From IMG/VR virus record IMGVR_UViG_3300038701_001123, positions 165 to 64,164 of that record: a stretch of DNA of 64,000 bases. The stretch is one strand, 5' to 3'. The DNA is from a virus. Position 1 is the stretch's first letter. Each line of letters opens with the position of its first letter. The notes beneath the pieces are model-generated. The model was not told the DNA's origin, searched no databases, and saw only the letters and a program-made list of their open reading frames with translations. The position numbers and the translations under genes are program-made. Of this stretch, positions 10,926 through 60,296 are shown piece after piece.

Positions 10926-10985
10926 TCTAGCGCCGCCGGAGGCTTGCTGTGCTGGGGCAGGGGCAACGGTGCGCCCTGTGGTGGG

Positions 10986-11027
10986 GCTGGTGGTGCCTAG
11001 CACGGGCAACCGCCCTCCAGCGCGTCC
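10986..11027 (-). repeat. Bipartite element copy D: GGACGCGCTGGA-N21-ACCACCAGC
   Basis: Direct read; lies in GA/TC-free island 10940-11016. Confidence 0.85.
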
Positions 11028-11043
11028 GTAGGGCTCCAAACTA

Positions 11044-11343
11044 TTAGTCGTGGTGGCCCATAAACTCCCAAACGCCCTGCCAATAGTCCTTGATGTTGCG
11101 TTCCATCAAAGCGACATGATCATTTATATGATCAAAGTCTTCTACACCGACCTGCATTCCATTTGCGATTACTTGAAGCCAGCCGATACAGACGTCCTCC
11201 TGCTCTTCACAGGTAAAGACTTTATATCCACCGTCCTCGGTAAGGTGATCGAAAACAAAATCGTGAATATCCGGGTTTTCAAATATGACTTTGTCGGCCC
11301 CTCGGAGGAAAGGACAATCAAAGCAGGGCGCTTCACAAGCCAT
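11044..11343 (-). CDS. Cys-rich hypothetical protein
   Basis: CEAPCFDCPF N-terminus; abuts primase stop. Confidence 0.6.
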   Translation of the reverse strand: MACEAPCFDCPFLRGADKVIFENPDIHDFVFDHLTEDGGYKVFTCEEQEDVCIGWLQVIANGMQVGVEDFDHINDHVALMERNIKDYWQGVWEFMGHHD

Positions 11344-13754
11344 CAGAATGGCTTCTCAATTTCACCGAGTTCTTCTTCATATGGAAGTTCCTCCCATTCA
11401 GTTTCACCATGCGTCGCTTCCCAAGCTGTGCGGCATTGTTCCAACGTACCGAAATCATACACGTTGACACGAGTCTTGACTTGGTGGCTGCGACCTTCGC
11501 TATCGTAATTCTCAACAGTCATACGCTGCTGGTTCTTGATAAGATGCGGGAACATTCTCTTTAGAAACTTACCAAGCTGAGTCGCATTTCCGCGATGGTT
11601 CATCTGCCACCTTTGGGTATACGACGTGAAATCTTCCTCGAGTTGCTTGGTCGGGATCGCTCCCTGCCATTTGGGATGCTGCTCCACGAGACGACCATCT
11701 TGCAGTTTCTGATAGAACCACTCTTCTTCACGGCTCAGTGACAGATCTTTCTGTTCGCGGAGGGCTTCTGTTTGTGGAACCTTACGGACGTTGAAGTCAC
11801 TGAGGTCTATGGACTGCAAATGGTAGAGCAGAGCCTCGTATCCACCGTTCTCCATTTGTTCATCGATTGCGCCGAAAAACTCGCTGTCCTGCTGGTTACG
11901 GGTTCCAATATCGAAAACACAATATCTCCGTTCATCACCCGTGGCACGGATAACGTGTGGATCATTGGAGGCCATGATCAAGTGAACATAGTTGGGATAG
12001 GGTTCTACGTCAATCCCTTTCTGTTCAATTGGAATGGTTTGCTCAGTGATGAGCATCTTGAGAACTGACTCGTGCTGTTTATCTCCAGCAAAGAAGGCTT
12101 CATCAGCGAACAGAGACACACAGTCTTTTAGGTGAGCGTTGAATTGCCCGACAAGGTGTTTCGCGTTACCGATATGAACATGGTGTCGCCCAAAGAGAGC
12201 ACCGAAGTATTTCGCGACGGTGCCTTTACCTGTCCCCTTGCCGCCACGCAGAACGATCGCAACTTCTCCAGGCGTAGCTGGGAACTGAACTACTCGGGCC
12301 ATCCAGTTGATTAGATAGTTGAAGTTCTCTTCATTGTCACCACAAATGTTGACCCGCAAATGCTCCAAGAACAATGAGCAGTCACCCGGTTGCGCCGCAT
12401 ATGAGAAGCCTCTCCAGAGGTTATACACCCCTTCTTTCTCTTGATTCGGCATGAATTTGATGGTGTCGTACTGGCGACGCATCGGATGGTTCAGCCAGAA
12501 CTTTCCAAGATCGACAACCACTGGTGCGCCTTTGTCGCTCGTACCGACTTGCACCTTCTTGTTGCTGTACCTGTTCCGGACATCTTCGAAACTGGAATAG
12601 GTCAGCTTGGTTCGGTTCAACTGATCATCAGGAACTTCCTCAATGACACGACATTTACCGCTGATGTTGCCGATCACCGCATGGCGGTCGTTCATCCATA
12701 CGAGATCATCGCTGTCTCCGGGGGTTTCAGCATATTCCTTGGCTCGGCCAATTTGTCGGACAGCGTATTGTTCAGCGCGGGCTTTGTTCTCTATGACACT
12801 TTCGGAGATGCCCCACTCAGGATCTGTGAGGATAGCATATATGACTTCGTCCGGAACCTTGCAGCGAACCATACCGCAGCAGAAATCGAACAACCATGCA
12901 GACCGAGAGTTGTCCTTCTCTTTGGGCTCGTCTGGGTGCATACCCTGGACCATAATGATCTTGAGCCTGTCCGGCACTTGATACTGATCCAATTCTGAAG
13001 GATCTTCAATGCGAACCACGTTGCCGGGAATGTTGACTTTCGCCCCTGCGCCTGCTGTGCGTCCAGTTCCGAAATCACCTTGGACCCCTTGTGCTTTCTT
13101 GAACTGATCAATGCTGTAGATATTCTTCGCATTGAATTGCAGCAGCTTGGCGAGAGTTTCAACCCGACCTTTCTTTCGCTTCTTTGCATCCGGGACATTG
13201 ACTGTACCGGGTAGACGCATGATGCGATCAACATTGTGACAGTGGTCTCCGCCGAAGATCTGTTCCAAGCGTTTGTTGTAGAGTTCGAAGTCTAGCCATT
13301 TCTCCTCATTGCCATCAATCTGAATGGCTTTGTCCAACTTCCAGAAGGCTTGAAAGCCACCACCTGAGAACAGGATTACTGTCGGCTCGGGGATACCCTT
13401 GGGGAGTTGATCGGTGAGTTGCCCAAGAGCGCGTTCCTGCTCCTCGGCGATATCCTGACCCTCGGCAGGATCGATGTCGACATGGAGCCAACCGGCTTCC
13501 CACATATCGACCTTGTTCGGCTTCTTGATCTTATCCTGCTTAAAGAACGCATTCTGCGGCCTGTTCACAGTGAAATAGATGTTGCGGTCGCCGTTGTACT
13601 TCTCGATCCAGTTACGGCAAGGCTCCAGAGTATTCGGGCCGAATACAGCGGTATCAATGCCTTTACGGTCAGTTGAAATAGCAGTGAGAAGCCACGGTCC
13701 TTTAGGGTAGAACTTCTCGAGAAACTCAATTGACTTTGGGGTCTCACCTTTCAT
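11343..13754 (-). CDS. Primase-helicase (prim-pol/RepB-like N-terminus plus SF3-type helicase)
   Basis: HVDID, FSGGGFQAFW, RIMRLPGTVN; Walker A GGKGTGKGT; FADEAF; IMASN. Confidence 0.9.
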   Translation of the reverse strand: MKGETPKSIEFLEKFYPKGPWLLTAISTDRKGIDTAVFGPNTLEPCRNWIEKYNGDRNIYFTVNRPQNAFFKQDKIKKPNKVDMWEAGWLHVDIDPAEGQDIAEEQERALGQLTDQLPKGIPEPTVILFSGGGFQAFWKLDKAIQIDGNEEKWLDFELYNKRLEQIFGGDHCHNVDRIMRLPGTVNVPDAKKRKKGRVETLAKLLQFNAKNIYSIDQFKKAQGVQGDFGTGRTAGAGAKVNIPGNVVRIEDPSELDQYQVPDRLKIIMVQGMHPDEPKEKDNSRSAWLFDFCCGMVRCKVPDEVIYAILTDPEWGISESVIENKARAEQYAVRQIGRAKEYAETPGDSDDLVWMNDRHAVIGNISGKCRVIEEVPDDQLNRTKLTYSSFEDVRNRYSNKKVQVGTSDKGAPVVVDLGKFWLNHPMRRQYDTIKFMPNQEKEGVYNLWRGFSYAAQPGDCSLFLEHLRVNICGDNEENFNYLINWMARVVQFPATPGEVAIVLRGGKGTGKGTVAKYFGALFGRHHVHIGNAKHLVGQFNAHLKDCVSLFADEAFFAGDKQHESVLKMLITEQTIPIEQKGIDVEPYPNYVHLIMASNDPHVIRATGDERRYCVFDIGTRNQQDSEFFGAIDEQMENGGYEALLYHLQSIDLSDFNVRKVPQTEALREQKDLSLSREEEWFYQKLQDGRLVEQHPKWQGAIPTKQLEEDFTSYTQRWQMNHRGNATQLGKFLKRMFPHLIKNQQRMTVENYDSEGRSHQVKTRVNVYDFGTLEQCRTAWEATHGETEWEELPYEEELGEIEKPF

Positions 13755-14142
13755 TCCAGAACGCCTCCAGTCGGTCGCTGGGCGCGCGACCGTTTTCCAT
13801 CAGGTTGTACCAATACCGGGTGATACCCATGAGATCGGCACATTCCTGTTGTGTCCATCCTGAGCGATAACGCCACAGGAAGCATTGTTCGTGAGGTTCA
13901 AGAGGCTCAACGACTACCATGAAACCGGGTAGCTTGAGAGTTCCTTCTGCCTCGGCGATACCATATTCACGGCGCTTCATACCGAAACTCTTCGCCATCG
14001 CCTTCTGGCTCAAGCGCATACGCCGACGATAGATTAGCGCCCGTTCTCCCTCAGATAAGTCAGAAGCCTTTCCACTTCCAACCCGTTCGGGAAATACAGT
14101 TCCGCTTCCGCTATCATCTGCGGTCTTGTCATGTTGTCCCAT
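13744..14142 (-). CDS. Tandem XRE-type HTH DNA-binding protein (start uncertain)
   Basis: RRRMRLSQKAMAKSFG and RYRSGWTQQECADLMGITRYWYNLMENG. Confidence 0.75.
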   Translation of the reverse strand: MGQHDKTADDSGSGTVFPERVGSGKASDLSEGERALIYRRRMRLSQKAMAKSFGMKRREYGIAEAEGTLKLPGFMVVVEPLEPHEQCFLWRYRSGWTQQECADLMGITRYWYNLMENGRAPSDRLEAFWNER

Positions 14143-14456: not shown

Positions 14457-14470
14457 TTCTTAGAACCCTC

Positions 14471-17221: not shown

Positions 17222-17603
17222 TCAAGATCTCCACAATTCTCGCTGCTCGGTTCATAGGTACGGCGGTGACGGAGATCTCCTCTAATTCAACAGTTTGCAG
17301 TTTGCGAAGCCCAGCTTCTTGTTTCTCCTGTCGGCCAGCGTAGCCGATGGAAAGCCCAGAAAGGCAGTGTTCCCTGATCCAGAACTGTGCGTCCTCATCA
17401 AGTACGGTGCCTTCACACCAGAGACCGTAGTCTTTCTCTTGTATTAGATCCCATCGGCCGATGATCTTCGATGAGTCATGCGACAACAGCATCGGCCTGA
17501 CATATGTGAATTTCTTGAGATCTGCCACGAAGCAGCCTTTGACGGTCACATCGTTATGACTATCACTCTCCCCGAATACCGAGGCCCACCCTTTGATGAT
17601 CAT
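17205..17603 (-). CDS. HK97-type prohead protease (S78-like), outside head module
   Basis: IKGWASVFG..D, MLLSHD...IGRW, GLSIGY, EEISVTAVPMN..ARI. Confidence 0.8.
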   Translation of the reverse strand: MIIKGWASVFGESDSHNDVTVKGCFVADLKKFTYVRPMLLSHDSSKIIGRWDLIQEKDYGLWCEGTVLDEDAQFWIREHCLSGLSIGYAGRQEKQEAGLRKLQTVELEEISVTAVPMNRAARIVEILNGEAD

Positions 17604-18277
17604 TATTCGTCACCTTCATAGCCAAATGGGGCGGGATGGTTGATTTTCCCGACGCCTGTGGACGCGCTGGATGCCGGGGGCTGGGTGGTAGCACCACCAG
17701 CACGTCCAGCGGCCCCGGTTTTAGCGGGCTGTGGCCGCTTTAGGCCAGTGGTGGGGGCAGGGGTAGCCCCGGCACCGGCCCGCGCTTGTGCGGCCTCTAC
17801 AGCGTTCCTAAGTATCTGCTCGGCCAGCCCGATCGCAACGGCAAGGTCGCCTTCATTCTGCCAACCGGCAACCGCCAGCATGAAATTCGTTTCCAGCGGT
17901 GAAAGCTGATTGCTTTCGCAGAACCGATTGGTATTCATGATAGCCAGATGGGCGAGTGAGCGATTGGCTCCGACCACAGTCGACCAGTTCTTGAGGCGCT
18001 TCTCCAGAAATGCCTCTTTGGCCTTGGTGAGATAATGGATGCCCTTCTGGACGTCCTGCACACCGTTCTTCTTGTTCCAGCGTGTGACATACTTCGTGGC
18101 TGCGCTTTCAAGATAACCGAGCCGGATATCGATAGACCAGTCCCAATGCTGATAGTCGCTTTGGTAGTGATTACCGCCGACTTGATATTCACTGGCAGAT
18201 TTCTTGCAGTTGCATTCTGCCCCGTCCCACAATTGCTTTCCGCAATCGCAGAACTTTACATCACGATCATGGCTCAT
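17603..18277 (-). CDS. DUF3310/SaV-like nucleotide kinase-type protein with low-complexity C-tail
   Basis: YQVGGNHY, AATKYVTRWNKKNGVQDVQKGIHYL. Confidence 0.75.
   Translation of the reverse strand: MSHDRDVKFCDCGKQLWDGAECNCKKSASEYQVGGNHYQSDYQHWDWSIDIRLGYLESAATKYVTRWNKKNGVQDVQKGIHYLTKAKEAFLEKRLKNWSTVVGANRSLAHLAIMNTNRFCESNQLSPLETNFMLAVAGWQNEGDLAVAIGLAEQILRNAVEAAQARAGAGATPAPTTGLKRPQPAKTGAAGRAGGATTQPPASSASTGVGKINHPAPFGYEGDE
17660..17701 (+). repeat. Bipartite element copy A: GGACGCGCTGGA-N21-ACCACCAGC
   Basis: Direct read; embedded in coding sequence. Confidence 0.85.
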
Positions 18278-18495: not shown

Positions 18496-19053
18496 TCAAA
18501 ACTCCATGTCGGGAAGGGTCTGCCAATCAGACTCCTTGATTTCGTAATAGAGGTCGATCAGTTCCACTGGAAACTCATGTTGCTTCTTGATCATGAATTG
18601 TTCGACATATTTCTTTTGGGTTTCCACTGTGCGATTACCAAGCATGAGTTGGTCTTTGCACCAGCAGTAGAACTCGAGCATATCGAGTCCCTTGAGCCAT
18701 TTGATTTCTTCGGGAGTACAAGCTGTCACGCTGTCGCTGCCGAAAACCTCGCTGTTGAGGTACATCTCAATATGACTCTGTCGGTCAAAATTGAGGAGAC
18801 CCATTGCCTTTGCAGGATGAGACATATCGCCGGTGACACGTTCAGGCATGTCGTGTTCAAGGACAGCCCAAACGAGGCGGAGAGGAGCATCCGGCCACAT
18901 GATCCTCAGCATTGTCAGCATGTTGAAACTGTGCATCCCGACATAGTGTGGTAGAGGCGGAGGGGTGCAGTGGGTGCGATGAACATTGGCGGCTTCGCGG
19001 GAATATTTCACCCGCTCCACCAATGTTTCGATTGCGTAGGGTTCCGAGGTCAT
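18496..19053 (-). CDS. HD-domain 5'-deoxynucleotidase (YfbR-like)
   Basis: VGMHS, LEHDMPERVTGD, KGLDMLE; ATGA overlap with TS homolog. Confidence 0.8.
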   Translation of the reverse strand: MTSEPYAIETLVERVKYSREAANVHRTHCTPPPLPHYVGMHSFNMLTMLRIMWPDAPLRLVWAVLEHDMPERVTGDMSHPAKAMGLLNFDRQSHIEMYLNSEVFGSDSVTACTPEEIKWLKGLDMLEFYCWCKDQLMLGNRTVETQKKYVEQFMIKKQHEFPVELIDLYYEIKESDWQTLPDMEF

Positions 19054-20075
19054 ACGTCGCGCCTTTCCAGCCATTCGAGACAAGCCTTGCGCCAGTCGGT
19101 TGCAGCGATACGGTCAGCGAAATATCGAGCCGAGTCCATGAAGTCCGGGGCGTCCTTGTCCTTCCACGCTTCCCACGCTTGGAACATCGGCACCACCACC
19201 TTCTTGAAGAAGGGGTCTTGGAAACCCATGACTGGTCCTTCGGACATGAACATATCCAGATCACGGAACCACGTCTCGATATCAGTGTTCACAATCTGGA
19301 ATGGTTGAACTTCCCCGAGTTCGTACGGAGTGAAGCCGGGGGACAGGTTCAGGAGAGCCTTGTGCTTTTCGAAAGTGTTGAGGTAAGCGTGGAAGTTGCT
19401 GCTGATCTGCCAATAGCGACCAACAGGCACCCCGATCCATGTAGCCATGACTTCCTGGAGAACCGAGAAGTGAACAGCGTTGGCACCGTATGCGCCCCAG
19501 ATCAGATCGTTGCTGCGGTTGAACACAGTCATATCGAGATGGCCTGACGGATTGATCCGGAAGGTTGTCACGAGGTTGCAGGGGAAGTCCTTGCCCATCA
19601 TGCCGAGATCAGCACTGGTGTCCCACATTTGGAGAACAATGCGGCGATCATCAGGGTTCTGCTTGAGAGCAGCAGCAATTGTCTGGAGTTGGTCGATGAT
19701 GCCGACTTTCTGGATCTGACCACCATCAGCTTCCCAGGCTCCAAACCAGTTGCGCCAGCGATATCCGTAAGCGCCGTGGAATGTAACACCATCATCAGAG
19801 AATTGCCCAAAGGTGGAATTGAACCGCTCGATCCAAGCGACATCATTACGACCGGCCAGCATCCACAGGCTTTCCATGAAATGGAAGAACGGATTACAGT
19901 CCCGCTCAGGAAGGAACATAACCCTCTCCCTTGGGTTCTGATACACCGTGGTCAGCGGTGCTTCGAAGGTATAGACCGGACCATTGCGACTGTCGCGGTG
20001 CTTCCCTTCGGCCTTGGTTTTCTTCATGCTGAGGATAAGGGCTTCCTCGACATTTCTCGCATATATGACTTCCAT
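19050..20075 (-). CDS. Thymidylate synthase homolog, probable dUMP hydroxymethylase
   Basis: DFPCN catalytic Cys, RSND..WGAYGAN (Asn at the dUMP-specificity position), FHAY; PNPFF-like CNPFFHFME. Confidence 0.8.
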   Translation of the reverse strand: MEVIYARNVEEALILSMKKTKAEGKHRDSRNGPVYTFEAPLTTVYQNPRERVMFLPERDCNPFFHFMESLWMLAGRNDVAWIERFNSTFGQFSDDGVTFHGAYGYRWRNWFGAWEADGGQIQKVGIIDQLQTIAAALKQNPDDRRIVLQMWDTSADLGMMGKDFPCNLVTTFRINPSGHLDMTVFNRSNDLIWGAYGANAVHFSVLQEVMATWIGVPVGRYWQISSNFHAYLNTFEKHKALLNLSPGFTPYELGEVQPFQIVNTDIETWFRDLDMFMSEGPVMGFQDPFFKKVVVPMFQAWEAWKDKDAPDFMDSARYFADRIAATDWRKACLEWLERRDV

Positions 20076-21346
20076 TACAGGAGAACTCCAAAGTGGTTGA
20101 AAAGGATATCATCGGCCTTGTCTGCTTGTGCAGCAGTGAGAGTGCCTTGGATGACTTCGACGTCGACCTCACCATGAGCAAGATCAATGACCCGCTGTGC
20201 CACAGTCTTGCGATCGAACATGGGCAGTAGATCATTTGCATTGGTCTGATAGCGACTTGCTTCGCTGACAGACATATGGCTCGCCTCTAGAATTGTATCG
20301 GCGTATTCGGCAGGATAAGCATCAGGAGGGATCTCAATGTAATGCTCACCGGCCACAAACAGTTCATCACCCATGCCAGCACGGCGAGCCACAGGGACAG
20401 CACCGCGTATCATGGCGTCGACCACCACACGGTTGAAGTGACCACCGATCTTGGAATAGTTCTTGGACCACGATGGATCCACAAGGATCCGGGCTTCCTC
20501 GAGCCAACTATTCACTTCGTCAGTGTCCCAATAGTCGTGATGGGTCATGCCGTTTTCAAGAGCGGCGTCCCAGAACCGGCGACCATCTTCGTGAAAATAG
20601 GCATCCTTGCATTTGTCTTCGCTGGTCATATAGCGATATTCAATTCCGAGGCCAGCGATCTCGCGCAGTTCATCAGCCTCTTTGGGCGGCATATAGGCGA
20701 TTGCCTCCACCAGTTCATGAACATGCTTCCAGGCTTTGAAAGTCTGCATGTTCACAAAGCCGGGTGATTTGATATGCCATTCTTCAATTGACCGAATAGG
20801 TTCGAATTGAGGGTTCACCACCAGCGCACGAGGAACATCGAAGATTTGAGCACCATTGAGAGCGCAGGGGTGAACACAGGCAAGCCCAGAGAGGTGGTCC
20901 TGCACGGCGACGAGGTGACTGTTGCCTTTTACGGCATTTCCATCGTGAATGAACGCAATCTGCTTAATGCGTTCTGGAAGGTCGTACAACTCGGGCCAGT
21001 CATTATTGCCGAGATTGTTCTTGTTTTTGCTTGGACATGGCACGGTCCAAATGATGAGATCGTAACGTTCGAGGATCTGTTTTGCTCCAGAAAGAGCAGC
21101 ACCACCACGATAAGGAATACGCTCCGTACGATCAAAGTTCCACCCCTTTCCTTGATGATGGGCGATACCGCTAGGGCCGATGCTCCAGTCTGCGGTTTTT
21201 CGCTGAGCGGGCGCATTGAACGCCCATACCATTTCTTTCAGATGAACCTCATGGCCGAGGTCTTGAAGACCGCCGATGAGTTGCTCTGTATGGTTGATAA
21301 TTCCACCAAGGTCCATGCACTGGTGGAGTGCGACTAGTATCTTCAT
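20075..21346 (-). CDS. GT-B fold glycosyltransferase
   Basis: MKILV..GGIINHTEQLIGGLQDLGHEV N-terminus; ILVDPSW...GHFNRVVVDAMIRGAVPV C-terminal motif. Confidence 0.75.
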   Translation of the reverse strand: MKILVALHQCMDLGGIINHTEQLIGGLQDLGHEVHLKEMVWAFNAPAQRKTADWSIGPSGIAHHQGKGWNFDRTERIPYRGGAALSGAKQILERYDLIIWTVPCPSKNKNNLGNNDWPELYDLPERIKQIAFIHDGNAVKGNSHLVAVQDHLSGLACVHPCALNGAQIFDVPRALVVNPQFEPIRSIEEWHIKSPGFVNMQTFKAWKHVHELVEAIAYMPPKEADELREIAGLGIEYRYMTSEDKCKDAYFHEDGRRFWDAALENGMTHHDYWDTDEVNSWLEEARILVDPSWSKNYSKIGGHFNRVVVDAMIRGAVPVARRAGMGDELFVAGEHYIEIPPDAYPAEYADTILEASHMSVSEASRYQTNANDLLPMFDRKTVAQRVIDLAHGEVDVEVIQGTLTAAQADKADDILFNHFGVLL

Positions 21347-21408
21347 TTGGGCTTCTCCGAAACTGCCTGACCACCATAGCGGCCCCGCAGGCAAAAGACA
21401 AGTGTAGT

Positions 21409-21591
21409 TTATCGCTTCCAAATCACCATGATCACAAGGATCAGTGGCCACAGAGGAGCGATGATCAGTAAGATCACACAGGCAAGCCAGCCCAGAGAGC
21501 GACGGTTCTTGGCTGCATAATTCAGGAAGAATAGTTGACTGAGCCCGATATACAGGCTCAGCCAGAAGTTATCAGTCAGCCATTCCAGCAT
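21409..21591 (-). CDS. Small membrane protein
   Basis: Two hydrophobic segments. Confidence 0.55.
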   Translation of the reverse strand: MLEWLTDNFWLSLYIGLSQLFFLNYAAKNRRSLGWLACVILLIIAPLWPLILVIMVIWKR

Positions 21592-22483
21592 AGCGGCTCC
21601 GAGGCTTGCCCTGCCCCAGCCTGACCCGTTCGTACTTGTCGAACTCGCAGAGTTGGAACTGGATATCGTGGGGTGCTAGTTGATCCCATTCACTTGGTAG
21701 GAACAGACCTTGGTTCATAACCAGAGCCTTGATGACATCACCCGCCGCTGTTTCTTTCAGAGGTTTGGCATCATCATCGCCGTTGACCCTTGCTGCTCCA
21801 CGACGAGCACCCGGACCGATTGGCGTCCATTCTGTCCAGTCACAAGGAAAGCTGAATGAACCGTCTACAGGGTGTTCAACCTGATCGTCCCAGAAGCTGG
21901 AATAGGTGGTGTCCAGCAGAATTTCCTTGGTCATGAAGCCAGAGCCTCCGAAACCTTGGATGGTTCGCATTTCGTCAGCCACGAACTCCCAGCACATGGT
22001 CCTTTGGGTGATGTCCATCAGCTTCGGAATCGCCTTCTGCAGAGCCTTGAGAAAGTAGTCGACCACCACTTCTTGCTTAGGAGCGGAGATCCCTTGGTTC
22101 GTGATGACATACGCGCCGGTGAACACCCGTTCTTTGTTTGCCAGTCGGTCTTCGGCGAGGTCTTTGACCCATTCCCAATGGTCTTCATCCATTGCCTCGT
22201 AGTCGGTCCAGCCCAAAGCAGTTGCGAACTCGTGCGTTCCGAAGTAACGGAATGTTGCGGCGTTCATCAGGATACTGCGACGGTCGTCGTGAAAGTGTGG
22301 TCCGTAGAATTGTTCTCTCAACTCCCTGCTGGTCCTATCGTGATGACGATGGACGTTGGTGAACTTGTATCCTTGAAGGATGGGATCATCAGTCCAAGGA
22401 CGAGGAAGGCCCGCCTCCTTTCGAAGACGGACCTTTTCGCGTTCCTCGACAAACTCGAAGAACTGGTTCTGACGATCGAGCAT
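21572..22483 (-). CDS. 5-hmdU DNA kinase helical-domain / aGPT-Pplase1-like protein
   Basis: ERE.VR..KEAGLPRPWTDDPIL..YKFTNV.R..DR, GFGGSGFM..E, D.QF.LCEFDKY.R motifs. Confidence 0.75.
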   Translation of the reverse strand: MLDRQNQFFEFVEEREKVRLRKEAGLPRPWTDDPILQGYKFTNVHRHHDRTSRELREQFYGPHFHDDRRSILMNAATFRYFGTHEFATALGWTDYEAMDEDHWEWVKDLAEDRLANKERVFTGAYVITNQGISAPKQEVVVDYFLKALQKAIPKLMDITQRTMCWEFVADEMRTIQGFGGSGFMTKEILLDTTYSSFWDDQVEHPVDGSFSFPCDWTEWTPIGPGARRGAARVNGDDDAKPLKETAAGDVIKALVMNQGLFLPSEWDQLAPHDIQFQLCEFDKYERVRLGQGKPRSRYAGMAD

Positions 22484-23202
22484 CAGGAAGCGTTGGCCTT
22501 GGCCACTTCCTTGGCCGCTTTCGCATCAGCCTTCTCTTTGGCCTTGCGTTCGCGTTCAGCCGCCTTTTCAGCCTTGGCCTTTTCACGGGCCTCTTTCTTC
22601 TCGGCAGCGGCCTTCTCGCGTTCGGCCTTCGCTTTGGCCCGCTCTTCGGCCTTCAGACGTTTCGCCTCTTCGGGGTCGGTCAGGCCGTGCTTCTTGTACC
22701 ACGCGGCCTTGCGTTCAGCGAATTCTTCGTCCGTCGGCTCGGTCACGGTCATGATGCCTTGACCCTGCCAGTTGTAGACGTCCCAAGGCTCGGTGCCTTC
22801 GGTCTCAATGACATCGACAATGGTCATGCCATCCTTGTAGTTCGGCCAGCGATGCGCCCGCCCCTGAGTACCGTCATGTTCGCCGGTCTTCGAAATGGTC
22901 GAAAACATTTTCTTGGTCGGACGCTTGACAACCTTCGCCTCAGCCGACTTCGCCAGACCACGTTCCTTGGGCGGAGCCTTCGGTTTGGTTTTCTTGGCCT
23001 TGGTATCATCGGTGTTGGAAGCGACCCGCTCCAGGGCTTTCCAGGTCTGCGCTTCGGCAGTGGCCTGATCCTTGAAGCCTTTGACTTCGGCCACACCCAG
23101 ATCGGCGGCGACAGCATTGCGGAGGGTCAGAAGTTCGTCGACGGACATATCTTTCAGCGATGCTTGGGTGTAGTCCTTACCCTGGAAGTTGATCGAGGTC
23201 AT
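22483..23202 (-). CDS. Hypothetical protein with K/A/E-rich coiled-coil C-terminus
   Basis: GGAG RBS; AERAKAKAEREKAAAEKKEAREK... tail. Confidence 0.75.
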   Translation of the reverse strand: MTSINFQGKDYTQASLKDMSVDELLTLRNAVAADLGVAEVKGFKDQATAEAQTWKALERVASNTDDTKAKKTKPKAPPKERGLAKSAEAKVVKRPTKKMFSTISKTGEHDGTQGRAHRWPNYKDGMTIVDVIETEGTEPWDVYNWQGQGIMTVTEPTDEEFAERKAAWYKKHGLTDPEEAKRLKAEERAKAKAEREKAAAEKKEAREKAKAEKAAERERKAKEKADAKAAKEVAKANAS

Positions 23203-23310
23203 AGTTGACTCCATTTCTGTGATATCACGTTGTTGCCTCTTGCAAGGTGGAATAACCCTACGCCATCCGAGCCTTAGAGGCAACAACTATTTGTCTTTGA
23301 GAGACAACTT

Positions 23311-30005: not shown

Positions 30006-30270
30006 TTGGCAATACTGACTATACTAGGACTGGTTGTCTCCGAGACTAGTATTGCCATCTCAAGTTATTGTTTTTATTACTATAATTTATCACTGACTAT
30101 ACTGACTATACTGACTATACTAAAATTTCCGGCAGGGTACAGCCGCCACGCCCTGCACCGCTGGGCAGTGTTGCCAGTGTTGCCAGTATAGTCAGGCGAA
30201 ATCTTTTGCTGCAAAGCCAACGGGTTAGGACTTTGGAGATGACATCACTTGACTATACTTGGCAATACTA
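30006..30270. repeat. Iteron-like non-coding region (ACTGACTAT repeats), candidate replication origin
   Basis: ACTGACTAT x3 tandem at 30092-30118, copy at 30014, inverted copy 30185-30195, AT-rich tract 30065-30090, TTGGCAATACT direct repeats at both ends. Confidence 0.65.
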
Positions 30271-30279
30271 GAGAAGCAG

Positions 30280-32367: not shown

Positions 32368-32381
32368 GTTACGACCCCTAC

Positions 32382-32423
32382 GGACGCGCTGGATGCCAAG
32401 CCCCGCACCATAGTACCACCAGC
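32382..32423 (+). repeat. Bipartite element copy B: GGACGCGCTGGA-N21-ACCACCAGC
   Basis: Direct read; start of GA/TC-free island 32393-32499. Confidence 0.85.
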
Positions 32424-32488
32424 GCCGCCACAGGGGCAGGCACAGGGGCGCTTGTGGGGCGCTTGGGTATGGTGGCACCGGGCAGGCA

Positions 32489-32800
32489 CTACTTGCCCTC
32501 CTGCGGCGCTTCTGGTGGGTCAATAACTTCTTTATAAACCTTCACTCCATCACCTCCAAACTTTAAGTCATTCACTTGGGTAACAGTTGATGCGGTAAAA
32601 TAAGAAACGACAATTGTAGTACACATTCCAAAAAGAGTACCCAAGAGGAAGCTGAGCTTCTCAATTCGATCTGCTCCATCTTCCGTCGTCACACCCTGCC
32701 AAAGCATCCATCCTCCGACTACAAGCATGAACCAGAAAGATATCCATGCCATCCTACGGCGATTATTGAAACGCTTGTCTTTCATGATTTGATCATTCAT
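32489..32800 (-). CDS. Putative holin (2 TM)
   Basis: RRRMAW followed by two TM helices. Confidence 0.6.
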   Translation of the reverse strand: MNDQIMKDKRFNNRRRMAWISFWFMLVVGGWMLWQGVTTEDGADRIEKLSFLLGTLFGMCTTIVVSYFTASTVTQVNDLKFGGDGVKVYKEVIDPPEAPQEGK

Positions 32801-40005: not shown

Positions 40006-43000
40006 TAGAACCGACCTCTATTCAGAATTCCAGTTCTTTCGATTGTGTTGACAATGGCAGTTTCACCTTCAGGAGTATCCAAGAACTGACCGACCATACC
40101 GGGATCTAAGACATTGATAATCTTCGGAGATACTGACACGTTAGATGAACTACCACTTTCTCCATTATTCATCTGTTGCTGTTGAGCAGCTTGTTGCCCA
40201 GGAGTGAGAATATCTACTCGTTCGTCTGGGCGTTTTTTGAAAGCCACGACTTGACTGTCAGTTGATCCAGGTCCGCTTGGAAGAATAGATCCACCGGAGT
40301 TAAAGCCGAAGAGTCCAGCGATACCACCGCCGCCCCCACCACCAAGAGGAACTCCAACAATGCTGCTGAGAAGACGCAAGAGAATTTGCTGTGCTGCAAG
40401 TTTCAAGAGTTGAGAGAACAGATCATTGAAAAACTGTCTCACATTAAATTGACCAGTTTTCGCAAATTCAACAATTGCATCGGAGGCTTTATCAGCGGCA
40501 CCTACCACCCAATCACCAAGAGCAGTACCAAGTTCTCCAGCAGACATGATTGCAGCACTAATAGAAGATCTGAAGCCACCAAAGAGAGTTCCAGATGCTT
40601 CATCAGCGGCTTGCTGCATTTCACGAATAGCGGTCGTATAATCATTAATATCAATACGACCTTGACGGAACAACTCATTAAGAGCCATCTGCCGTTCAGC
40701 CGCTTCTCGACGAGGACCTTCGATACTTTCGAGAACGTCCGCTTGAGTTTTTGCTGCTTCAAGAGCTCTTAGGGTTTGATCTGCTAAAGCTCTCTCAGCA
40801 TCAGTAAGACTTCTCTTGAGTTCTTTCTCAATTTTCAAAATCTCATTAGCTCTTTCACGCTCTCTGACGCTCAAGCCTAGCAATTCAATCTCTTGCTGCA
40901 TCCCGGATATAATGGAAGCGAAATCTGCTCTCTGGGAACCTCCGCCCCCACCGCCTCCGCCGCCTCCAGGAGTGGTTGGAGTGGTTCCACCGCTTGGGAT
41001 AACATCCTGAGCCATGACAGCTTCTTCAGCAGCATTCGCAATATTCTGTCTTGCTCTTTCAGTAATTGCCTGACCAATTGGTTCAAGAGCAGTTCCCACA
41101 GCGCCTACCGTATTCTCCAGATTAGTGGCTTCGAACGTAGTTGCGAAAGCATCACCAAAAGCATTCGCTGCCGCTTTACCTGCCCCTTCATATTCATTTA
41201 CAAATCTACTGAGCTCGACATTCCCGATCCTACCAATTTGACCAGAAAACCCAAAGAGTTCAGCAGCCTTATCGCCGCCGACAAAACTGATCAGAGCGTT
41301 AATCGCATCAATTACGAGGTTGATGGCATTTATAGCACCATTTGCAAAGGCTTCGAAACCTGCAATCAGAGCATTAGCGAGACTTGTGGCAGCACTAGAT
41401 GCCGCCTGTGGAAGTATATCGAAAGCCGCGACAATACCAGCGATTGCTGACACCGCAACCCTTGGGAAGAATGTGAATGCGTCGAACACTAGATTGATGA
41501 CGAAATCCATGACAGTTCGGACTTCGTCACCGAGTGAAGCAAAGAAGCCGATCACGGCTTTAATAGCATCGCCGATTGTCCTGCGTAGAAAATCAGCAAC
41601 AGGAGCGATCGCTTCAATGATAAGCTGGAATGCTGCCACGACAGCATCCTTCAGACCAACTACTCCATCGGAGGTGACTTTAATCTCATTGCCCCAACGA
41701 AGGAATGCAGCGGTAGCCGCTACGACTGCAACGACAGCCGCGCCGATTGGATTTGCGGCGAGAAGTGTGCCAAGGCCAGCCATTGCGCGACCCGCCAGCC
41801 CGATGCCACCAGCCAGCGTTGGAAATAGGCGGGTAAGCCGCGCCGTGGTGCCTGCGCTGGCCGCTTGTGCTGCGGCTAGGCGGGCGTTAGCGGCTGCTGC
41901 GGTGGTGGTGGCCCCGGTTTGTGCTGCGCGGGCTGTAGCAAGCCTTCCAGCGGTCGCAGCTTCAACACCTTCAACAATCGAAAGCTGTTGCGTCACCCTT
42001 GCGAGGTTCGCTTTCGCCGTGCTGAGAGCAACGAATTGACCAGTTGCGATATTGCGAGCGCGGCCATTCGCTACGGTGAATTGCGTATCCAGAACAGTTT
42101 GCTGGAGATCTGCTTTCTTCAGTTGAAGGAGAGCGAGACGTTGTTGCAGTTCTGCCTGACGAGCCGCGTTGGATGCGACAGCCGCTTGGGTCCGACGAAC
42201 ACTCGCTGCGGCGCGAAGGTTCTCGACTTCAAGGAGACGCGCACTCGCTACGGCCCCAGCCCTTAGACTGAGGGTGAAGTTGGCAATCGACTGAATTGTG
42301 CGAATCCCAAAGGAGAGCGCGAAGGCTGCTGCGGCTGCGCCGAGAGTGCCGACAATGAGTTCGATATTCTCTGACAGGAAGATTATTGCATTCGCCACCT
42401 TACTGGAGATCTGGAACGTATCCTCCAGATTATCCAGGAACTCAAGCCAGTTGGTGTTCGCAACAGACAGAGCCTGAGAAATTGTTGGCTGGGTCTGAGC
42501 GAACAGACGATCGATCTCTTCTTCCGCGTTACGGAAGGCTTCAAGAACAACTTCTGCGGAAATCTTACCTTCACGACCAAACTGACGTAGTTCACCACGA
42601 GTGATACCAAGCTGACGGGCAATCACATCTGCAACGAATGGCAGTTGTTCCAGAACAGAACGAAGTTCGTCACCGGACAGGCGGTTCGAAGCAAGACCTT
42701 GGGAAAGCTGGATCAGTGCTGCGTTTGCTTCTCGGGTCGACGCACCAGATAGGATCGATGCTTTCGCGAGACTTTCCGTGAAGCGAGCAGTTTCTTGCTG
42801 ACTGATGCCAAGCTGACGGACGGACAGAGCAGTCCTGTTGTAGATCTCGGCCACAGACTCGAAAGACGTGCGGCTGTCACGAGCCACTTGGAACAGGCGT
42901 GTCTGAACTTCTTCCAGATTTTGTGCGCTGGTAGTGGTCAGGCGTAGCCTGTTCTCGACATTGGTCAGAAGGTCCGCTTGGGTTGTCAGCGCACGGATAG

Positions 43001-43151
43001 CGCCCGCACCACCGAGAACAAAGATGGCTCGCTGCAAGAGAAAGATGCCACGAGTGGAGCGGTTAGCAGCTTCACCAATCTCATCAATTCGGCGCTTGAT
43101 AACTCGAGCGCCGGACTCCCTAAATCTGATATCGACGTTTTCTGTGACCAT
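40005..43151 (-). CDS. Tape measure protein
   Basis: 1048 aa; LIQLSQGLASNRLSGDELRSVLEQLP tape-measure domain. Confidence 0.93.
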   Translation of the reverse strand: MVTENVDIRFRESGARVIKRRIDEIGEAANRSTRGIFLLQRAIFVLGGAGAIRALTTQADLLTNVENRLRLTTTSAQNLEEVQTRLFQVARDSRTSFESVAEIYNRTALSVRQLGISQQETARFTESLAKASILSGASTREANAALIQLSQGLASNRLSGDELRSVLEQLPFVADVIARQLGITRGELRQFGREGKISAEVVLEAFRNAEEEIDRLFAQTQPTISQALSVANTNWLEFLDNLEDTFQISSKVANAIIFLSENIELIVGTLGAAAAAFALSFGIRTIQSIANFTLSLRAGAVASARLLEVENLRAAASVRRTQAAVASNAARQAELQQRLALLQLKKADLQQTVLDTQFTVANGRARNIATGQFVALSTAKANLARVTQQLSIVEGVEAATAGRLATARAAQTGATTTAAAANARLAAAQAASAGTTARLTRLFPTLAGGIGLAGRAMAGLGTLLAANPIGAAVVAVVAATAAFLRWGNEIKVTSDGVVGLKDAVVAAFQLIIEAIAPVADFLRRTIGDAIKAVIGFFASLGDEVRTVMDFVINLVFDAFTFFPRVAVSAIAGIVAAFDILPQAASSAATSLANALIAGFEAFANGAINAINLVIDAINALISFVGGDKAAELFGFSGQIGRIGNVELSRFVNEYEGAGKAAANAFGDAFATTFEATNLENTVGAVGTALEPIGQAITERARQNIANAAEEAVMAQDVIPSGGTTPTTPGGGGGGGGGGSQRADFASIISGMQQEIELLGLSVRERERANEILKIEKELKRSLTDAERALADQTLRALEAAKTQADVLESIEGPRREAAERQMALNELFRQGRIDINDYTTAIREMQQAADEASGTLFGGFRSSISAAIMSAGELGTALGDWVVGAADKASDAIVEFAKTGQFNVRQFFNDLFSQLLKLAAQQILLRLLSSIVGVPLGGGGGGGIAGLFGFNSGGSILPSGPGSTDSQVVAFKKRPDERVDILTPGQQAAQQQQMNNGESGSSSNVSVSPKIINVLDPGMVGQFLDTPEGETAIVNTIERTGILNRGRF

Positions 43152-56024: not shown

Positions 56025-56173
56025 CTTTGCTCGAATGATGAGGGATGCTCGCCAATTCCGGGTACGCGGGCCTTGCTTGGCGTGGGGTCGTCGTCACCGC
56101 CGGTCGTGGGGGCGGGTCACGGGCGGCAGGCTAGGGCAAGGCTTTCGCCCTGCCCTTGTGCCTTAGTGCTGCC

Positions 56174-56557
56174 CTACTTGGCAGGAACGAGCCATGCCTG
56201 CTTCGGGTTGCTGGCCCATGTCGGCATATTGTGGGCCTGCCAGCCACCACGCGGCGGGGCGATGCTGCTGGCCGCTGCACCTTCCACGAGAGCCGCCTTG
56301 TACTGTGCCAAGGTAAAGCCTTTGGGGTTGGCTTTGCTGAGGTCACGTGCCACCTGCTGCGCATAAGCGCGGTGTGTGCCGGGGCGCACCGGGGGCATGG
56401 TGCCAGCCACAAACAGGGGCGCTTGCGGTGCGCTGGCCTGTGCTGCCTTGCTGCCCTGTGCTGCCTTGGTGGTGGCAACGGTGCCCGCGCCTGTGGCGCT
56501 GGTGGCGGTGGGGGCGGTGCGCTTGGTGGTGGTTGCTTTCTGTGCTTTGGTAGCCAT
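56174..56557 (-). CDS. Basic Ala/Thr-rich protein encoded in the largest GA/TC-free island
   Basis: AAGGAACTACCAA-ATG leader; only one Asp and one Glu. Confidence 0.7.
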   Translation of the reverse strand: MATKAQKATTTKRTAPTATSATGAGTVATTKAAQGSKAAQASAPQAPLFVAGTMPPVRPGTHRAYAQQVARDLSKANPKGFTLAQYKAALVEGAAASSIAPPRGGWQAHNMPTWASNPKQAWLVPAK

Positions 56558-56762
56558 TTGGTAGTTCCTTTTGTTGTGTGCTTGGCGTTAGTGCCTTGCT
56601 ACACCATTTAACTTAGGAGTTGGGGCGGCATATGTAAACCCCCTTTTTGTCCCCTATAGCAAAAACTCGTAAACAGTTAGTTTCCGATTTAGGTGCTAAT
56701 CCGCCTTAATTCTGCCACATTTGTAGTGCAGATTGTAAGGGTAGTAAGAAAGGAACCTACCA

Positions 56763-57607: not shown

Positions 57608-57643
57608 CGTGGCCTCCTTGGTTTAAGCTGGTGTGGTACAATC

Positions 57644-57683: not shown

Positions 57684-57829
57684 CTCCACGTTTTATCTCC
57701 AAATTTATACGGAGGAAGAGGAAGAAGACGGACATACCTGCGGAGACAAAGTGATAATATGACTCTGTCGATCAAATTGAAGGAAACAGCTTGTCGGTCA
57801 AAAAGACAATATGACTCTGTCGGTCAAAA

Positions 57830-58459
57830 TCAATCTTCATCATTGCCCAAGAGAGGAGCGCCGGGGGTGATGTCTTTCGCAGCGCCGAACCTCGACTCCC
57901 AATCATCGATGCTCTCCATCTCGGCAGGAGCCACAAGGACACCGCCAGTGTGATTGACCTTAAACTCTTTCTTATCTCGATAGCCCTCGTCATGCTTTTT
58001 GAGTTCCAGTTCAATCAGTCGGATAGGGTAATCGTAGCTTGTCTCAATGAGATTGCCGTCTTTGTCGTAGCGGTTCTTCTCCACGCCATTGAACACGAGG
58101 TTCTGGTGGTGGGAGACCAGCTTATCTCGATATTCTTCCTCCTGCATGTAGAGGGCCTCGGCGAACTCTTCATCTTCTTCTATGTGCCGACGGACTGTGC
58201 CTGGAGTGACACCCGCTGCGGCAGCGGCTTCTCCCATCCTTCCCCATTTGGCATACTCTCGGAGGAATATCTCCTTGGCGACATCGTCGAATTTATCTCG
58301 AGACATACGGATCACAGTCCGCCATTCTCCAGTTATCTCGTCCTGTATCTCCACCTTTACGGGTTTCGATCCTCGACTGATAAGAGAGCGAAGACGGGGC
58401 TGCATCGTGTACTTCCCGTTGTCGTAATCTTCTTTGTACTGCTCGATGTCGTCTGTCAT
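57830..58459 (-). CDS. terS: Terminase small subunit-like protein
   Basis: FLREYAKWG.MGEAAAAAGVTPGTVRRH HTH; GVEKNRY; GYRDKKE..VNHTGG. Confidence 0.7.
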   Translation of the reverse strand: MTDDIEQYKEDYDNGKYTMQPRLRSLISRGSKPVKVEIQDEITGEWRTVIRMSRDKFDDVAKEIFLREYAKWGRMGEAAAAAGVTPGTVRRHIEEDEEFAEALYMQEEEYRDKLVSHHQNLVFNGVEKNRYDKDGNLIETSYDYPIRLIELELKKHDEGYRDKKEFKVNHTGGVLVAPAEMESIDDWESRFGAAKDITPGAPLLGNDED

Positions 58460-58589
58460 CGTTGTCTTCCTATTTAAGCACGTCCACGCGCGAGAAAAGA
58501 ATGAGGAGATCTCCCGTTAAACACTACCCTGACAGATGGCCCAAGAGCAAGCGCATTATCTCCAGATTTCAGGCTTCAAGACAGTCCTT

Positions 58590-58850
58590 CTGTTTAGTGT
58601 AGTCAGCCGACTTCTGGACAGACCACGTCAACCCCTTGTTATTACTTCATTTCTACTACTTCTATAAATACTAAATACTATCTACTACAGGCTACCCCAT
58701 AACTTCCACAGCGGAGACCTCCCCGGCCCTGCACTTTGGGCTTAGTGTAGGCTTGCCAGAAGTATTTATTTAGTCACAGGAGAAAACTTTGACTTTACAA
58801 CAACATAACAGAACACTACTATACGTCTATCATACTACACGACAAAAAGG
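58590..58850. repeat. Second CTACTAC/TAGTGTAG-rich non-coding element sharing a core with 30.1 kb region
   Basis: GCCCTGCAC..TGGGC..AGTGT..TTGCCAG core at 58726 matches 30150; many short ACTA-type repeats. Confidence 0.55.
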
Positions 58851-58859
58851 ACGACCTCA

Positions 58860-59501
58860 ATGTGGAACCCATTGCAGCCAGTTCGGGACACGGCAGGCCT
58901 CAGCCCAAGGACGCATATCTCCCATCCCCAGTCAATATATAACCCATACGACCCGAAGAATATGACAGCACAGCTATCGCTCTACAACTGGTGCAGCGGC
59001 ATGGACTATGTGAACGGAGCTGGTATTGCTGATCTTCATGAGTTCCTGTTCGGGGCTGGCTCGCCGGTAACATCTCGGCAAATGGGCATGACAATTATTC
59101 AGGCGACGCAGTACGACCCAAGGAAGCTGAAAGCCAAGACGCTGGACAACGATCATGCGAAGAAGATGTATGTGTTCAAAAACCCACTCGACCTGAAATA
59201 CGGCCTGGAGTGGATGCTCAGCATGTGGATCTGGAACCTGGAATGGGCGTATGCTGATATTGCGAGGCAAGAGAACCGACTGCAAATCATGCAAGAAATT
59301 TTTGACGAACTAGGCTCGTGCGAGAGCGATAAACTGAATACCGAGTTTATTGAGCGCGTTTGGGAAGGCGATCTGTATGAGATGAGCCTGAATGAGCCGA
59401 AGCCTGACTGGCCTGCTCTTTGGGCTAAGTTTGGTTGGGAACGAGAACCGGCAATGACGGCTCCGACGGAACGGGGTGATAAGCCAAGGTCTCTGATGTG
59501 A
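58860..59501 (+). CDS. Hypothetical protein (plus strand)
   Basis: 213-aa ORF, AAGGA RBS; no better minus-strand ORF. Confidence 0.65.
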   Translation: MWNPLQPVRDTAGLSPRTHISHPQSIYNPYDPKNMTAQLSLYNWCSGMDYVNGAGIADLHEFLFGAGSPVTSRQMGMTIIQATQYDPRKLKAKTLDNDHAKKMYVFKNPLDLKYGLEWMLSMWIWNLEWAYADIARQENRLQIMQEIFDELGSCESDKLNTEFIERVWEGDLYEMSLNEPKPDWPALWAKFGWEREPAMTAPTERGDKPRSLM

Positions 59502-59677
59502 TGGAAGAGCAATTCACATATCTCTGCAAGGCGACATATCTGTATCTGGCGAATGACAAATGGCCCAGGAACATAATGATGTTCCCGAGCCTGCAAGCGT
59601 TCGAAGAGTGGTGTGAGAAGTATCCGATGCAGGCTGAGAAAGTGAATAGTGGCGATCTCAGCCCGCTGTTTCGTTAA
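59501..59677 (+). CDS. Small hypothetical protein (58 aa)
   Basis: TGATG coupling to upstream gene. Confidence 0.55.
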   Translation: MEEQFTYLCKATYLYLANDKWPRNIMMFPSLQAFEEWCEKYPMQAEKVNSGDLSPLFR

Positions 59678-59931
59678 TTCAGTTTACCCCTCAGCAGTTC
59701 ACCGAGATCGGGAATCATATGGCCCTCGGTCTCGTCCATGGTCTTCTTCAGCGTGATAAACCTGTTGAGGTTCTCGAAGACAGCGTCGAAGAGTTCCTGC
59801 GCCCGCGCCTTGGCTTTCTCGCCTTCTTTGTTGCGACCAGCGTTGAGTTCCACCTGATATTGCGTTGTGCGGAACTCGAGCTCTTTCCACTTTTCGTCTG
59901 TGTCTTTCCGGATATCGCAGAGTTCACACAT
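59674..59931 (-). CDS. Hypothetical protein
   Basis: TAATG coupling. Confidence 0.6.
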   Translation of the reverse strand: MCELCDIRKDTDEKWKELEFRTTQYQVELNAGRNKEGEKAKARAQELFDAVFENLNRFITLKKTMDETEGHMIPDLGELLRGKLN

Positions 59932-60296
59932 TAGAGTAATTCCTTCAGTTTGTTTTCGTGGTGAAGTTGAGTTTTGAGGATGATATGGCGCAGGATCATC
60001 TCCGACCAGCGGTCGTCAGGGAGTTCTACCCATTCGAAATCGTTCTGGTGCTGCATCTGGAGTTCGCTGCGCTCGCCGCTGGAATACCATCTGGCAGAGA
60101 TGCGTCTTTCCCGAGGCAGTTTGATCCAGCAGGTTGATATTCCACGTTCAGAGTAGTCCATACCGCCGAATTCGCCCCGCGTGATTTCCTCGAGCAGGGT
60201 TTGCACCTTTTCAGGGACCGCGCTGGATGCAGCGCCACGGGCTACCCTACCACCAGCACGCCCACAGGCTCCCAGGATGCGTCTGAGCAATCCCAT
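59931..60296 (-). CDS. Hypothetical protein
   Basis: TAATG coupling; N-terminus overlaps bipartite element C. Confidence 0.55.
   Translation of the reverse strand: MGLLRRILGACGRAGGRVARGAASSAVPEKVQTLLEEITRGEFGGMDYSERGISTCWIKLPRERRISARWYSSGERSELQMQHQNDFEWVELPDDRWSEMILRHIILKTQLHHENKLKELL
60215..60257 (+). repeat. Bipartite element copy C: GGACCGCGCTGGA-N21-ACCACCAGC
   Basis: Direct read; GA/TC-free 60227-60270. Confidence 0.85.

Follow-up and report, generated by a model that had tools for sequence, protein, structure and literature searches.

A gene and several short islands written without GA and TC steps in a clade of uncultured siphophages with thymidine-hypermodification genes

GA/TC-free islands in a GA/TC-rich phage genome

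The window analyzed here is the 64,000-nt stretch from position 165 to position 64,164 of the IMG/VR virus record IMGVR_UViG_3300038701_001123. It takes up nearly all of a 64.6-kb phage contig, the overlapping ends of which suggest a circular assembly, and nearly all of its genes lie on the minus strand. Our analyses concern islands in this DNA that completely lack the dinucleotide steps GA and TC, the largest of which lies in a gene for a 127-residue basic protein, referred to here as p127. In the window as a whole, GA+TC accounts for 15.5% of the dinucleotide steps, with an observed/expected ratio (o/e) of 1.24, and is the most over-represented class. Genome-wide avoidance of GA/TC, of the kind known for restriction sites, is therefore not found; the word is over-represented overall and its absence is local.

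Runs with zero GA/TC occupy positions 56344-56539 (196 nt), 41823-41946 (124 nt), 32393-32499 (107 nt), 17706-17796 (91 nt), 10940-11016 (77 nt), 30129-30192 (64 nt), 60227-60270 (44 nt), 58721-58759 (39 nt) and 63800-63837 (38 nt). An earlier note on this DNA had listed these runs, and all of them were recovered at the coordinates that it gave; its two spot counts elsewhere in the window were recomputed as 11 and 10 GA+TC per 60 nt. On the basis of the GA+TC frequency of 15.5%, the expected number of runs of at least a given length is 0.21 for 64 nt, 0.024 for 77 nt, 2e-3 for 91 nt, 1.5e-4 for 107 nt, 9e-6 for 124 nt and 5e-11 for 196 nt. The short runs of the earlier note (38-44 nt), while present, are within chance when taken alone. 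In 100 first-order Markov simulations of the window, the longest GA/TC-free run averaged 48 nt and the largest measured 78 nt. The other nine strand-symmetric dinucleotide classes showed no comparable outlier; the sole other class above its simulated maximum was AT, which exceeds it narrowly (an AT-free run of 197 nt versus 166 nt). Given their own base composition, the six main islands should contain 28 GA and 37 TC steps (65 in total) and contain none of either, while the 14 remaining dinucleotides all occur within them. Their GC content is 70% as compared with 52% for the genome, and the islands of low-GC relatives likewise reach 48-67% against 42%.

The islands occur both in genes and between genes, as the earlier note had noticed, with three coding and three non-coding cases among the six main ones. 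The zones of Islands F, E and D come from hidden Markov model (HMM) segmentation of the window. The largest zone, Island F (56118..56650, minus strand), holds 14 GA/TC in 532 nt where about 82 are expected at 15.5%, and spans the gene at 56174-56557 plus its flanks; the 196-nt core (56344-56539) encodes the N-terminal half of the 127-residue protein. Island E (41763..41946, minus strand, core 41823-41946) lies in an Ala/Thr-rich stretch of the presumed tape-measure gene (40005-43151, 1048 amino acids), an assignment based on protein length, location in the tail module and a match to the annotated tape measure of phage M6. Island A (17655..17796, minus strand) encodes the C-terminal Ala/Gly/Pro/Thr linker of a DUF3310-like protein (17603-18277). 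The earlier note had itself raised the objection that runs of this length might be expected under a codon-aware null. We calculated P(0), the exact probability of zero GA/TC given the island peptide and the codon usage of the genome, as 1.7e-8 for Island F, 1.8e-5 for Island E and 4.8e-4 for Island A, and the codon-aware null is therefore rejected.

Several islands share a clade-specific 16-mer, CCTGTGGCSGCGCTGG. It has 8 matches, with up to 3 mismatches, versus 0.75 expected; every one of them falls within or beside an island, commonly paired in inverted orientation, and together they make up four palindromic elements of about 58 bp. One element copy is found in Island A. Island B (32377..32499), which separates a holin-like gene (32489-32800) from an Rz-like spanin gene and is non-coding, contains an inverted pair of the motif, and Island D (10881..11032), which is intergenic and near the ligase gene, carries three copies around its 77-nt core. 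A further element, copy C (60212..60270, repeat family D3), lies at the start of the open reading frame (ORF) 59931-60296 with a 16-mer match at 60253-60268, although the length of its 44-nt GA/TC-free run alone is within chance. The remaining short island (30129..30192), intergenic and upstream of the SNF2-helicase gene, is marginal on its own with its expected number of 0.21.

This last island is flanked by repeats of a 9-nt iteron-like unit, CTGACTATA, with three tandem copies facing an inverted copy (30093-30121 and 30167-30195), just upstream of the helicase and replication genes. Judged by this layout, the repeats may mark a replication origin. The Escherichia coli Chi octamer GCTGGTGG is also frequent in the window, with 13 copies versus about 2 expected by length, 10 of them on the coding strand and four of them belonging to the palindromic elements. 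Its strand bias may be explained by the preferred codons GCT and GGT. A function as a Chi hotspot was dropped as an explanation, because the orthologous islands of relatives keep GCGCTGG and not the octamer.

The islands are conserved in a clade of uncultured siphophages

Near and distant DNA searches found no DNA-level relative of the window among isolate phages, and protein searches placed its proteins at ~50% from the M6/YuA/PaMx11/Ab18 group, the Bordetella CN1 group and phage Simon. Many closer relatives, all uncultured, are present in IMG/VR, with 70-95% identity in PolA, TerL and the helicase. The island-bearing clade comprises uncultured siphophages of about 60-66 kb and 37-63% GC.

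The islands recur at the same map positions in these relatives: in the DUF3310 tail upstream of polA, near the ligase gene, in the spacer between the holin-like and spanin genes, in the tape-measure gene and between terS and terL. A survey of the first 165 sequences scanned (164 loci and the window, 2.16 Mb) detected 69 significant GA/TC-free runs in 37 of them, as compared with 0-14 for each of the other classes, and islands are present in relatives of 42% GC as well. The spacer orthologous to Island B measures 105-133 nt (most often 115-116 nt) and is GA/TC-free or nearly so in 11 relatives; the L172 locus 365-480, about 9.5 kb upstream of the helicase, is a different island and was left out of this count. 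The tape-measure gene of relatives has an island of 116-169 nt in the same place as Island E, the islands orthologous to Island A measure 38-141 nt, and the short island at 30129-30192 has a 94-nt counterpart in one relative, L167. The orthologue of Island D is exactly 77 nt long in three relatives, where it differs at 26-33 positions and still has zero GA/TC; random substitution at this divergence leaves the island free with a probability of only 3e-4 to 1e-3. The islands are conserved in the clade and maintained by purifying selection at the DNA level.

A whole gene without GA and TC

The p127 gene (56174..56557, minus strand) sits between terS (57830-58459) and terL (52158-53678), and its translation is a basic protein of 127 residues, rich in Ala, Thr, Pro and Lys. 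In the window the zone is depleted of GA/TC rather than empty, and p127 retains one Asp and one Glu. In relatives, the runs upstream of terL reach 590-785 nt with zero GA/TC. There the zone covers the p127 orthologue, its upstream region, the ribosome-binding site (AAGG-type, without GA) and a downstream GC-rich hairpin, and in several relatives it also includes the following hydrophobic ORF of 32-34 codons. Its borders are sharp, with 9-16 GA/TC in the 50-nt bins outside in the clearest cases.

The codon usage of this gene is extreme. In the 14 distinct p127 orthologues (1807 codons), Phe is encoded 33 times by TTT and never by TTC, and Ser 54 times by AGY and never by TCN, whereas TTC makes up 72% of the Phe codons and TCN 64% of the Ser codons in the genes of the window. 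The same orthologues have no CTC for Leu and no CGA or AGA for Arg, a single GTC for Val and a single ATC for Ile, and neither Asp nor Glu. The p127 family has become nearly devoid of these two residues because their codons begin with GA. Among the best-scoring 120 of 182 p127 homologues, 78 lack any acidic residue, and Asp and Glu together account for 0.56% of 16,128 residues. The C-terminal domain is conserved; in orthologues of only 37-83% identity, its GA/TC fraction is 0-0.057, as compared with 0.12-0.18 for the locus. Pfam and PHROG searches with p127 gave zero matches, Foldseek gave none against the PDB, the AlphaFold model is weak (mean predicted local distance difference test score, pLDDT, of 61), and the Atlas search returned unnamed viral clusters only.

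The DNA upstream of the zone has features of its own. In 8 of 13 relatives, the 450 nt immediately upstream of the zone contain a 200-nt segment whose GA/TC density ranks among the highest 1.3% of its locus. In the densest 200 nt, GA/TC reaches 24-28% of the steps in an array of short repeats such as TCTTCATCTTC and GACCGAGTGA; such dense stretches are L035 8570-8968, L052 1317-2030, L020 7850-8140, L031 8070-8465 and L038 5545-6451. The array lacks GpC for 226-311 nt in several relatives. Arrays of TTGACCGAGTGAG, which is related to the repeat family AATATGACTCTGTCGGTCAAA described below, are also located upstream of the zone in relatives.

Thymidine-hypermodification genes and the TC context

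The earlier note had credited the phage with a T-hypermodification cluster, and our scans bear this out. A gene block at 19050..23286 (minus strand), conserved in clade members, encodes a thymidylate synthase (TS) homologue (19050-20075; PF00303, 1.4e-25), a match that fits a hydroxymethylase and a true thymidylate synthase equally well; a GT-B-like glycosyltransferase (GT; 20075-21451; PF13692/PF00534, 24.6 and 21.9 bits, below the curated cut-offs); a 5-hydroxymethyldeoxyuridine (5-hmdU) DNA kinase (21572-22483; PF18723 HMUDK_hel, 1.4e-32, 113.7 bits versus a cut-off of 25); and a 267-residue protein (22483-23286) weakly similar to an M6 ORF. All four genes are on the minus strand, and genes for a dCTP-deaminase-like protein, ribonucleotide reductase and PolA lie near the block. 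The kinase is about 27-29% identical to those of M6, PaMx11 and Simon. No homologue of the glycosyltransferase was found in 50,697 isolate phage records, and no protein of the window had a Pfam match to an aGPT-Pplase or amino-acid transferase.

That such enzymes modify only some dinucleotide contexts, as the earlier note supposed, agrees with the literature. According to restriction analyses, the hypermodified thymines of M6, ViI and PhiW-14 lie in TG/TC steps (PMC6449724), and a 2026 study reported nearly complete modification of TG in the Acinetobacter phage SH-Ab 15599 (PMC13458397); earlier papers call the modification motifs unknown (PMC5889632, PMC8989533). By our counts, no dinucleotide is more over-represented than the known context TG in PhiW-14 (o/e 1.34) and SH-Ab 15599 (1.18). 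The corresponding enrichment of TC outside the islands, also claimed earlier, is evident in the window: at codon junctions TC (1.32) and GA (1.26) are the two top dinucleotides. Moreover, third-position C is favored specifically after T, with 72% of Phe codons ending in C versus 42-55% for Tyr, His, Asn and Asp.

A Mom-like tRNA-dependent adenine modification, which has the motif SAS and a GNAT enzyme (PMC13219725), was considered as well, and nothing alike was found here.

The islands as candidate windows of unmodified DNA

GA and TC are mutual reverse complements, and both have gone from one strand; therefore, the constraint is on a duplex step. This points to a constraint read in duplex DNA, and not in RNA; the P(0) values and the codon choice of the p127 orthologues place it on nucleotides and not on protein. 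We tentatively favor, at somewhat less than even confidence, the interpretation that TC would be the modified context of this phage and the islands its modification-free windows. The TC/GA step would then be avoided as the context where the 5-hmdU DNA kinase pathway of the clade hypermodifies thymine. The islands are also low in T+A overall, in keeping with this interpretation. T followed by C makes up about 32% of the thymines of the window, and these would be the modified ones, leaving the islands as the sole unmodified stretches. The fraction of modified T in M6 is similar.

If so, the DNA of the p127 gene would have to stay unmodified, for example for transcription from fully modified virion DNA; alternatively, its purpose may be survival of a defence attacking modified sites. 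The short islands, five or six in number and 64-185 nt long, carry the inverted 16-mer motif and might serve as unmodified protein-binding windows. The earlier note had ascribed such windows to the needs of packaging, ejection, replication or recombination proteins, and this idea has lost ground in two respects. M6, PaMx11 and Simon are island-free, so that homologous machinery for packaging and replication can operate without such windows. In addition, what the largest island spans is an entire gene plus flanks, not a binding site.

Several points weigh against this interpretation. First, the modified context is one that we infer, and so are the idea that the islands stay unmodified and all roles proposed for them. 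Second, Simon, PaMx11, PhiW-14, SH-Ab 15599, 9g and M6 (first 50 kb) have zero significant runs free of any dinucleotide class, and none when TG and TC are combined; the 5-hmdU kinase pathway is insufficient for islands. In 9g, the modified base is a deazaguanine, placed at GA steps. Third, among relatives with and without the GT and kinase genes, a comparison that the earlier note had proposed, the GT-less G005 has islands, and the kinase-bearing M6, PaMx11 and Simon have none. All contigs with a window-type kinase (at least 53% identity) have islands. The complete G005 genome has runs of 158, 149, 136, 133, 77 and 77 nt, which occupy matching positions on its map; the glycosyltransferase is therefore not required. 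On the other hand, the runs of G004 reach 64-65 nt at most, and G001, with 38% GC and a kinase 47% and a GT 49% identical to those of the window, has zero islands. The islands thus follow one clade, and the specificity of the kinase is therefore inseparable from common descent. Finally, the word GANTC is strongly depleted in the window: its 85 sites give an o/e of 0.22, whereas other spacings in the same codon phase give about 0.8. The ratio is 0.14 in the closest relative (the contig of L001/L059/L166), while M6 and Simon, at about 0.47, stay near their own baseline. Such avoidance is unexpected if TC modification protected these sites. It could reflect a host GANTC methylase or restriction system (CcrM-like, alphaproteobacterial), or a clash between N6-methyladenine and modified T at the same base pair.

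With still more reserve, we consider it possible that the genome is laid out epigenetically, with TC enriched throughout apart from one complete gene, its flanks and five or six short windows, all of which would be GA/TC lipograms. Such a layout would be, by analogy, an inverted and selection-driven viral counterpart of CpG islands. If this holds true, the context preference of an uncharacterized thymidine-hypermodification pathway could be read from sequence alone, and the phage would have to exempt some of its DNA, including one entire gene, from its own protective chemistry. This bears on the cost of hypermodified bases in transcription, protein binding and exposure to modification-dependent defences. 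The acid-free p127 family would be a rare case of a DNA-level rule setting the amino-acid repertoire of a conserved protein, and GA/TC-free islands would offer a simple computable signature for similar systems in viromes.

Alternative explanations

Another possibility, which we consider unlikely, is that GA/TC is the recognition core of a different duplex-DNA enzyme and that the islands must escape its cutting or damage. Such an enzyme might be a nuclease of the host or the phage, a DNA deaminase specific for TC, or part of a modification-dependent defence; the islands would represent, for instance, an anti-defence gene and control regions, in the manner of the early region of phage T7 with its anti-restriction gene. 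The strand-symmetric absence, the sharp edges and the protection of an entire gene with its flanks would all fit such an enzyme. So would the known phages with dinucleotide-context modification that have no islands, which imply that modification alone does not create them. However, the rest of the genome is GA/TC-enriched and would be fully exposed, and no candidate turned up among the scanned proteins. We know of no enzyme acting on a plain GA/TC word, and the lack, to our knowledge, of any nuclease with plain dinucleotide-level specificity counts against this explanation.

The islands might instead be a by-product of composition, in which GC-rich words (CCTGTGGCSGCGCTGG, GGGCAGGG) and low-complexity Ala/Thr/Pro/Gly/Lys coding exclude GA/TC with no dinucleotide selection. 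The 16-mer is indeed enriched, with every match in or at an island, and GC-rich 7-mers recur across islands. Furthermore, in GT-less relatives the 3' end of an ORF just upstream of the kinase match is Lys/Glu/Ala-rich and free of AC/GT for 130-193 nt (G005 30277-30560, L312; G003 30593-30785, L321; L185/L290). Protein composition alone can therefore yield runs free of another dinucleotide class. Nevertheless, TC/GA-containing synonymous codons are wholly avoided in the islands, and the linkers between motifs, the ribosome-binding sites and the hairpins are free as well. In the 77-nt island a third of the bases have changed and no GA or TC has arisen, the 14 other dinucleotides are present, and the 69 significant GA/TC-free runs in the 165 sequences stand against 0-14 for the other classes. 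We therefore regard a by-product of composition as very improbable and largely refuted. The narrower idea of a by-product of motif arrays was rejected, as linkers, codons and the entire p127 gene are equally GA/TC-free.

Local mutational decay is, in our estimation, just as improbable. Here the modified T in TC would mispair, so that TC becomes CC and GA becomes GG, a process that would run to completion in weakly constrained DNA. The islands are in fact spacers, linkers and low-complexity protein, and their GC content of about 70% is close to the sum of the genomic 52% and the GA+TC fraction of 15.5%, which is roughly the case in the relatives of 42% GC as well. However, TC and GA are enriched and not depleted at synonymous and junction positions genome-wide, an observation that also led us to reject genome-wide mutational decay. 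For stretches as long as 785 nt to lose every GA/TC step and end abruptly next to GA/TC-dense DNA, selection or a strictly local mutator would be needed, and both the positions and the lengths of the islands are conserved. A constraint at the RNA level, whereby transcripts without GA and UC would escape a ribonuclease, fold or bind a protein, is the least credible of these explanations: all of the islands are in transcribed DNA of a single-strand gene layout and the large zone could match one transcript, but a signal read in RNA gives no reason to avoid its reverse complement as well, eight islands fold no better than shuffled sequences (z from -2.0 to +1.6), and Rfam and ARAGORN had zero matches in islands, the two tRNA-like Rfam matches of the window lying elsewhere.

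Other candidates were set aside. A sequencing artefact, with modified T read as C, does not suit islands of different sequences in many independent assemblies, with sharp edges and GA/TC-dense neighbors. Avoidance of protospacer-adjacent motifs and the presence of a sigma-54 promoter, both considered by eye, were dropped because the words required are longer or of another kind, or because relatives do not conserve them.

Comparison with known systems

No description of GA/TC-free islands was found in the literature searched. The window resembles M6, ViI, PhiW-14 and SH-Ab 15599 in pairing a gene for a TS homologue with one for a 5-hmdU DNA kinase and in the genome-wide enrichment of a context dinucleotide, the context being known for those phages and inferred here. 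The kinase of the window is only about 27-30% identical to theirs, its cluster contains a GT, and those phages have no context-free islands.

Vertebrate CpG islands are unmodified regions that differ from the bulk in their content of a modifiable dinucleotide. Both kinds of island are discrete, position-conserved regions set apart by one modification-tied dinucleotide. The sign is reversed, however, since the islands described here lack the dinucleotide and the bulk is enriched in it; their cause is selection and not mutational decay of the bulk, and their unmodified state is a proposed one.

Entire genes written without a short target word have precedents. The first-entering early region of phage T7, which carries an anti-restriction gene, avoids restriction words, and mRNAs without ACA resist MazF. 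In the present case the word has only two bases and is avoided on both strands, at the cost of two amino acids.

The four inverted 16-mer pairs of about 58 bp, found in both orientations, recall the Rickettsia palindromic elements and the repetitive extragenic palindromic (REP) and miniature inverted-repeat transposable element (MITE) families. As in Rickettsia, two copies lie in frame in coding sequence and encode a low-complexity peptide. In contrast to repeats of the REP/MITE type, their positions are conserved among relatives, and neither presence/absence polymorphism nor empty sites were seen. They account for only part of the island sequence, and neither the tape-measure island nor the p127 island contains one.

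TF1 of the Bacillus phage SPO1 is a small basic DNA-binding protein that prefers hydroxymethyluracil (hmU) DNA. Like p127, it is a small basic protein from a phage of hmU lineage. The likeness concerns a possible role only, p127 having shown no sequence or fold similarity in the searches.

Repeat families and other features of the window

Two further repeat families were noted. An 18-nt near-palindrome of the TGACAAATTCTATTTGTC type has seven copies, at 220, 1958, 5661, 7147, 56008, 57667 and 62343, several of them immediately following GC-rich hairpins. Read on the minus strand, the copy at 56013-55985 resembles a sigma-70 promoter (TTGTCA-17-TAAAAT), and the family probably represents early promoter or operator sites. 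The second family, AATATGACTCTGTCGGTCAAA (minus-strand TTTGACCGACAGAGTCATATT), occurs at 9643, 10773, 11275, 18760, 57150, 57747 and 57799 and may be a phage-specific promoter or binding site.

As for the occurrence of the phage, algae-metagenome runs from two studies match the window DNA with word shares of 1.00 and 0.95, and seawater and gut metagenomes contain small shares of it.

Three further minus-strand genes were noted: the ORF at 703-1221 encodes a pyrimidine-dimer DNA glycosylase-like protein (PF03013, 7.7e-5), that at 60296-60808 an Rv2179c-like 3'-5' exoribonuclease domain (1.2e-20), and that at 13744-14142 a helix-turn-helix protein resembling sigma region 4. Two tRNA-like sites lie at 6894-6975 and 7208-7282 (minus strand), namely a tRNA-Arg(TCT) identified by both ARAGORN and Rfam and a tRNA-like match by Rfam alone (44 bits), and a gene for a DUF7873 protein (7559-8302) adjoins them.

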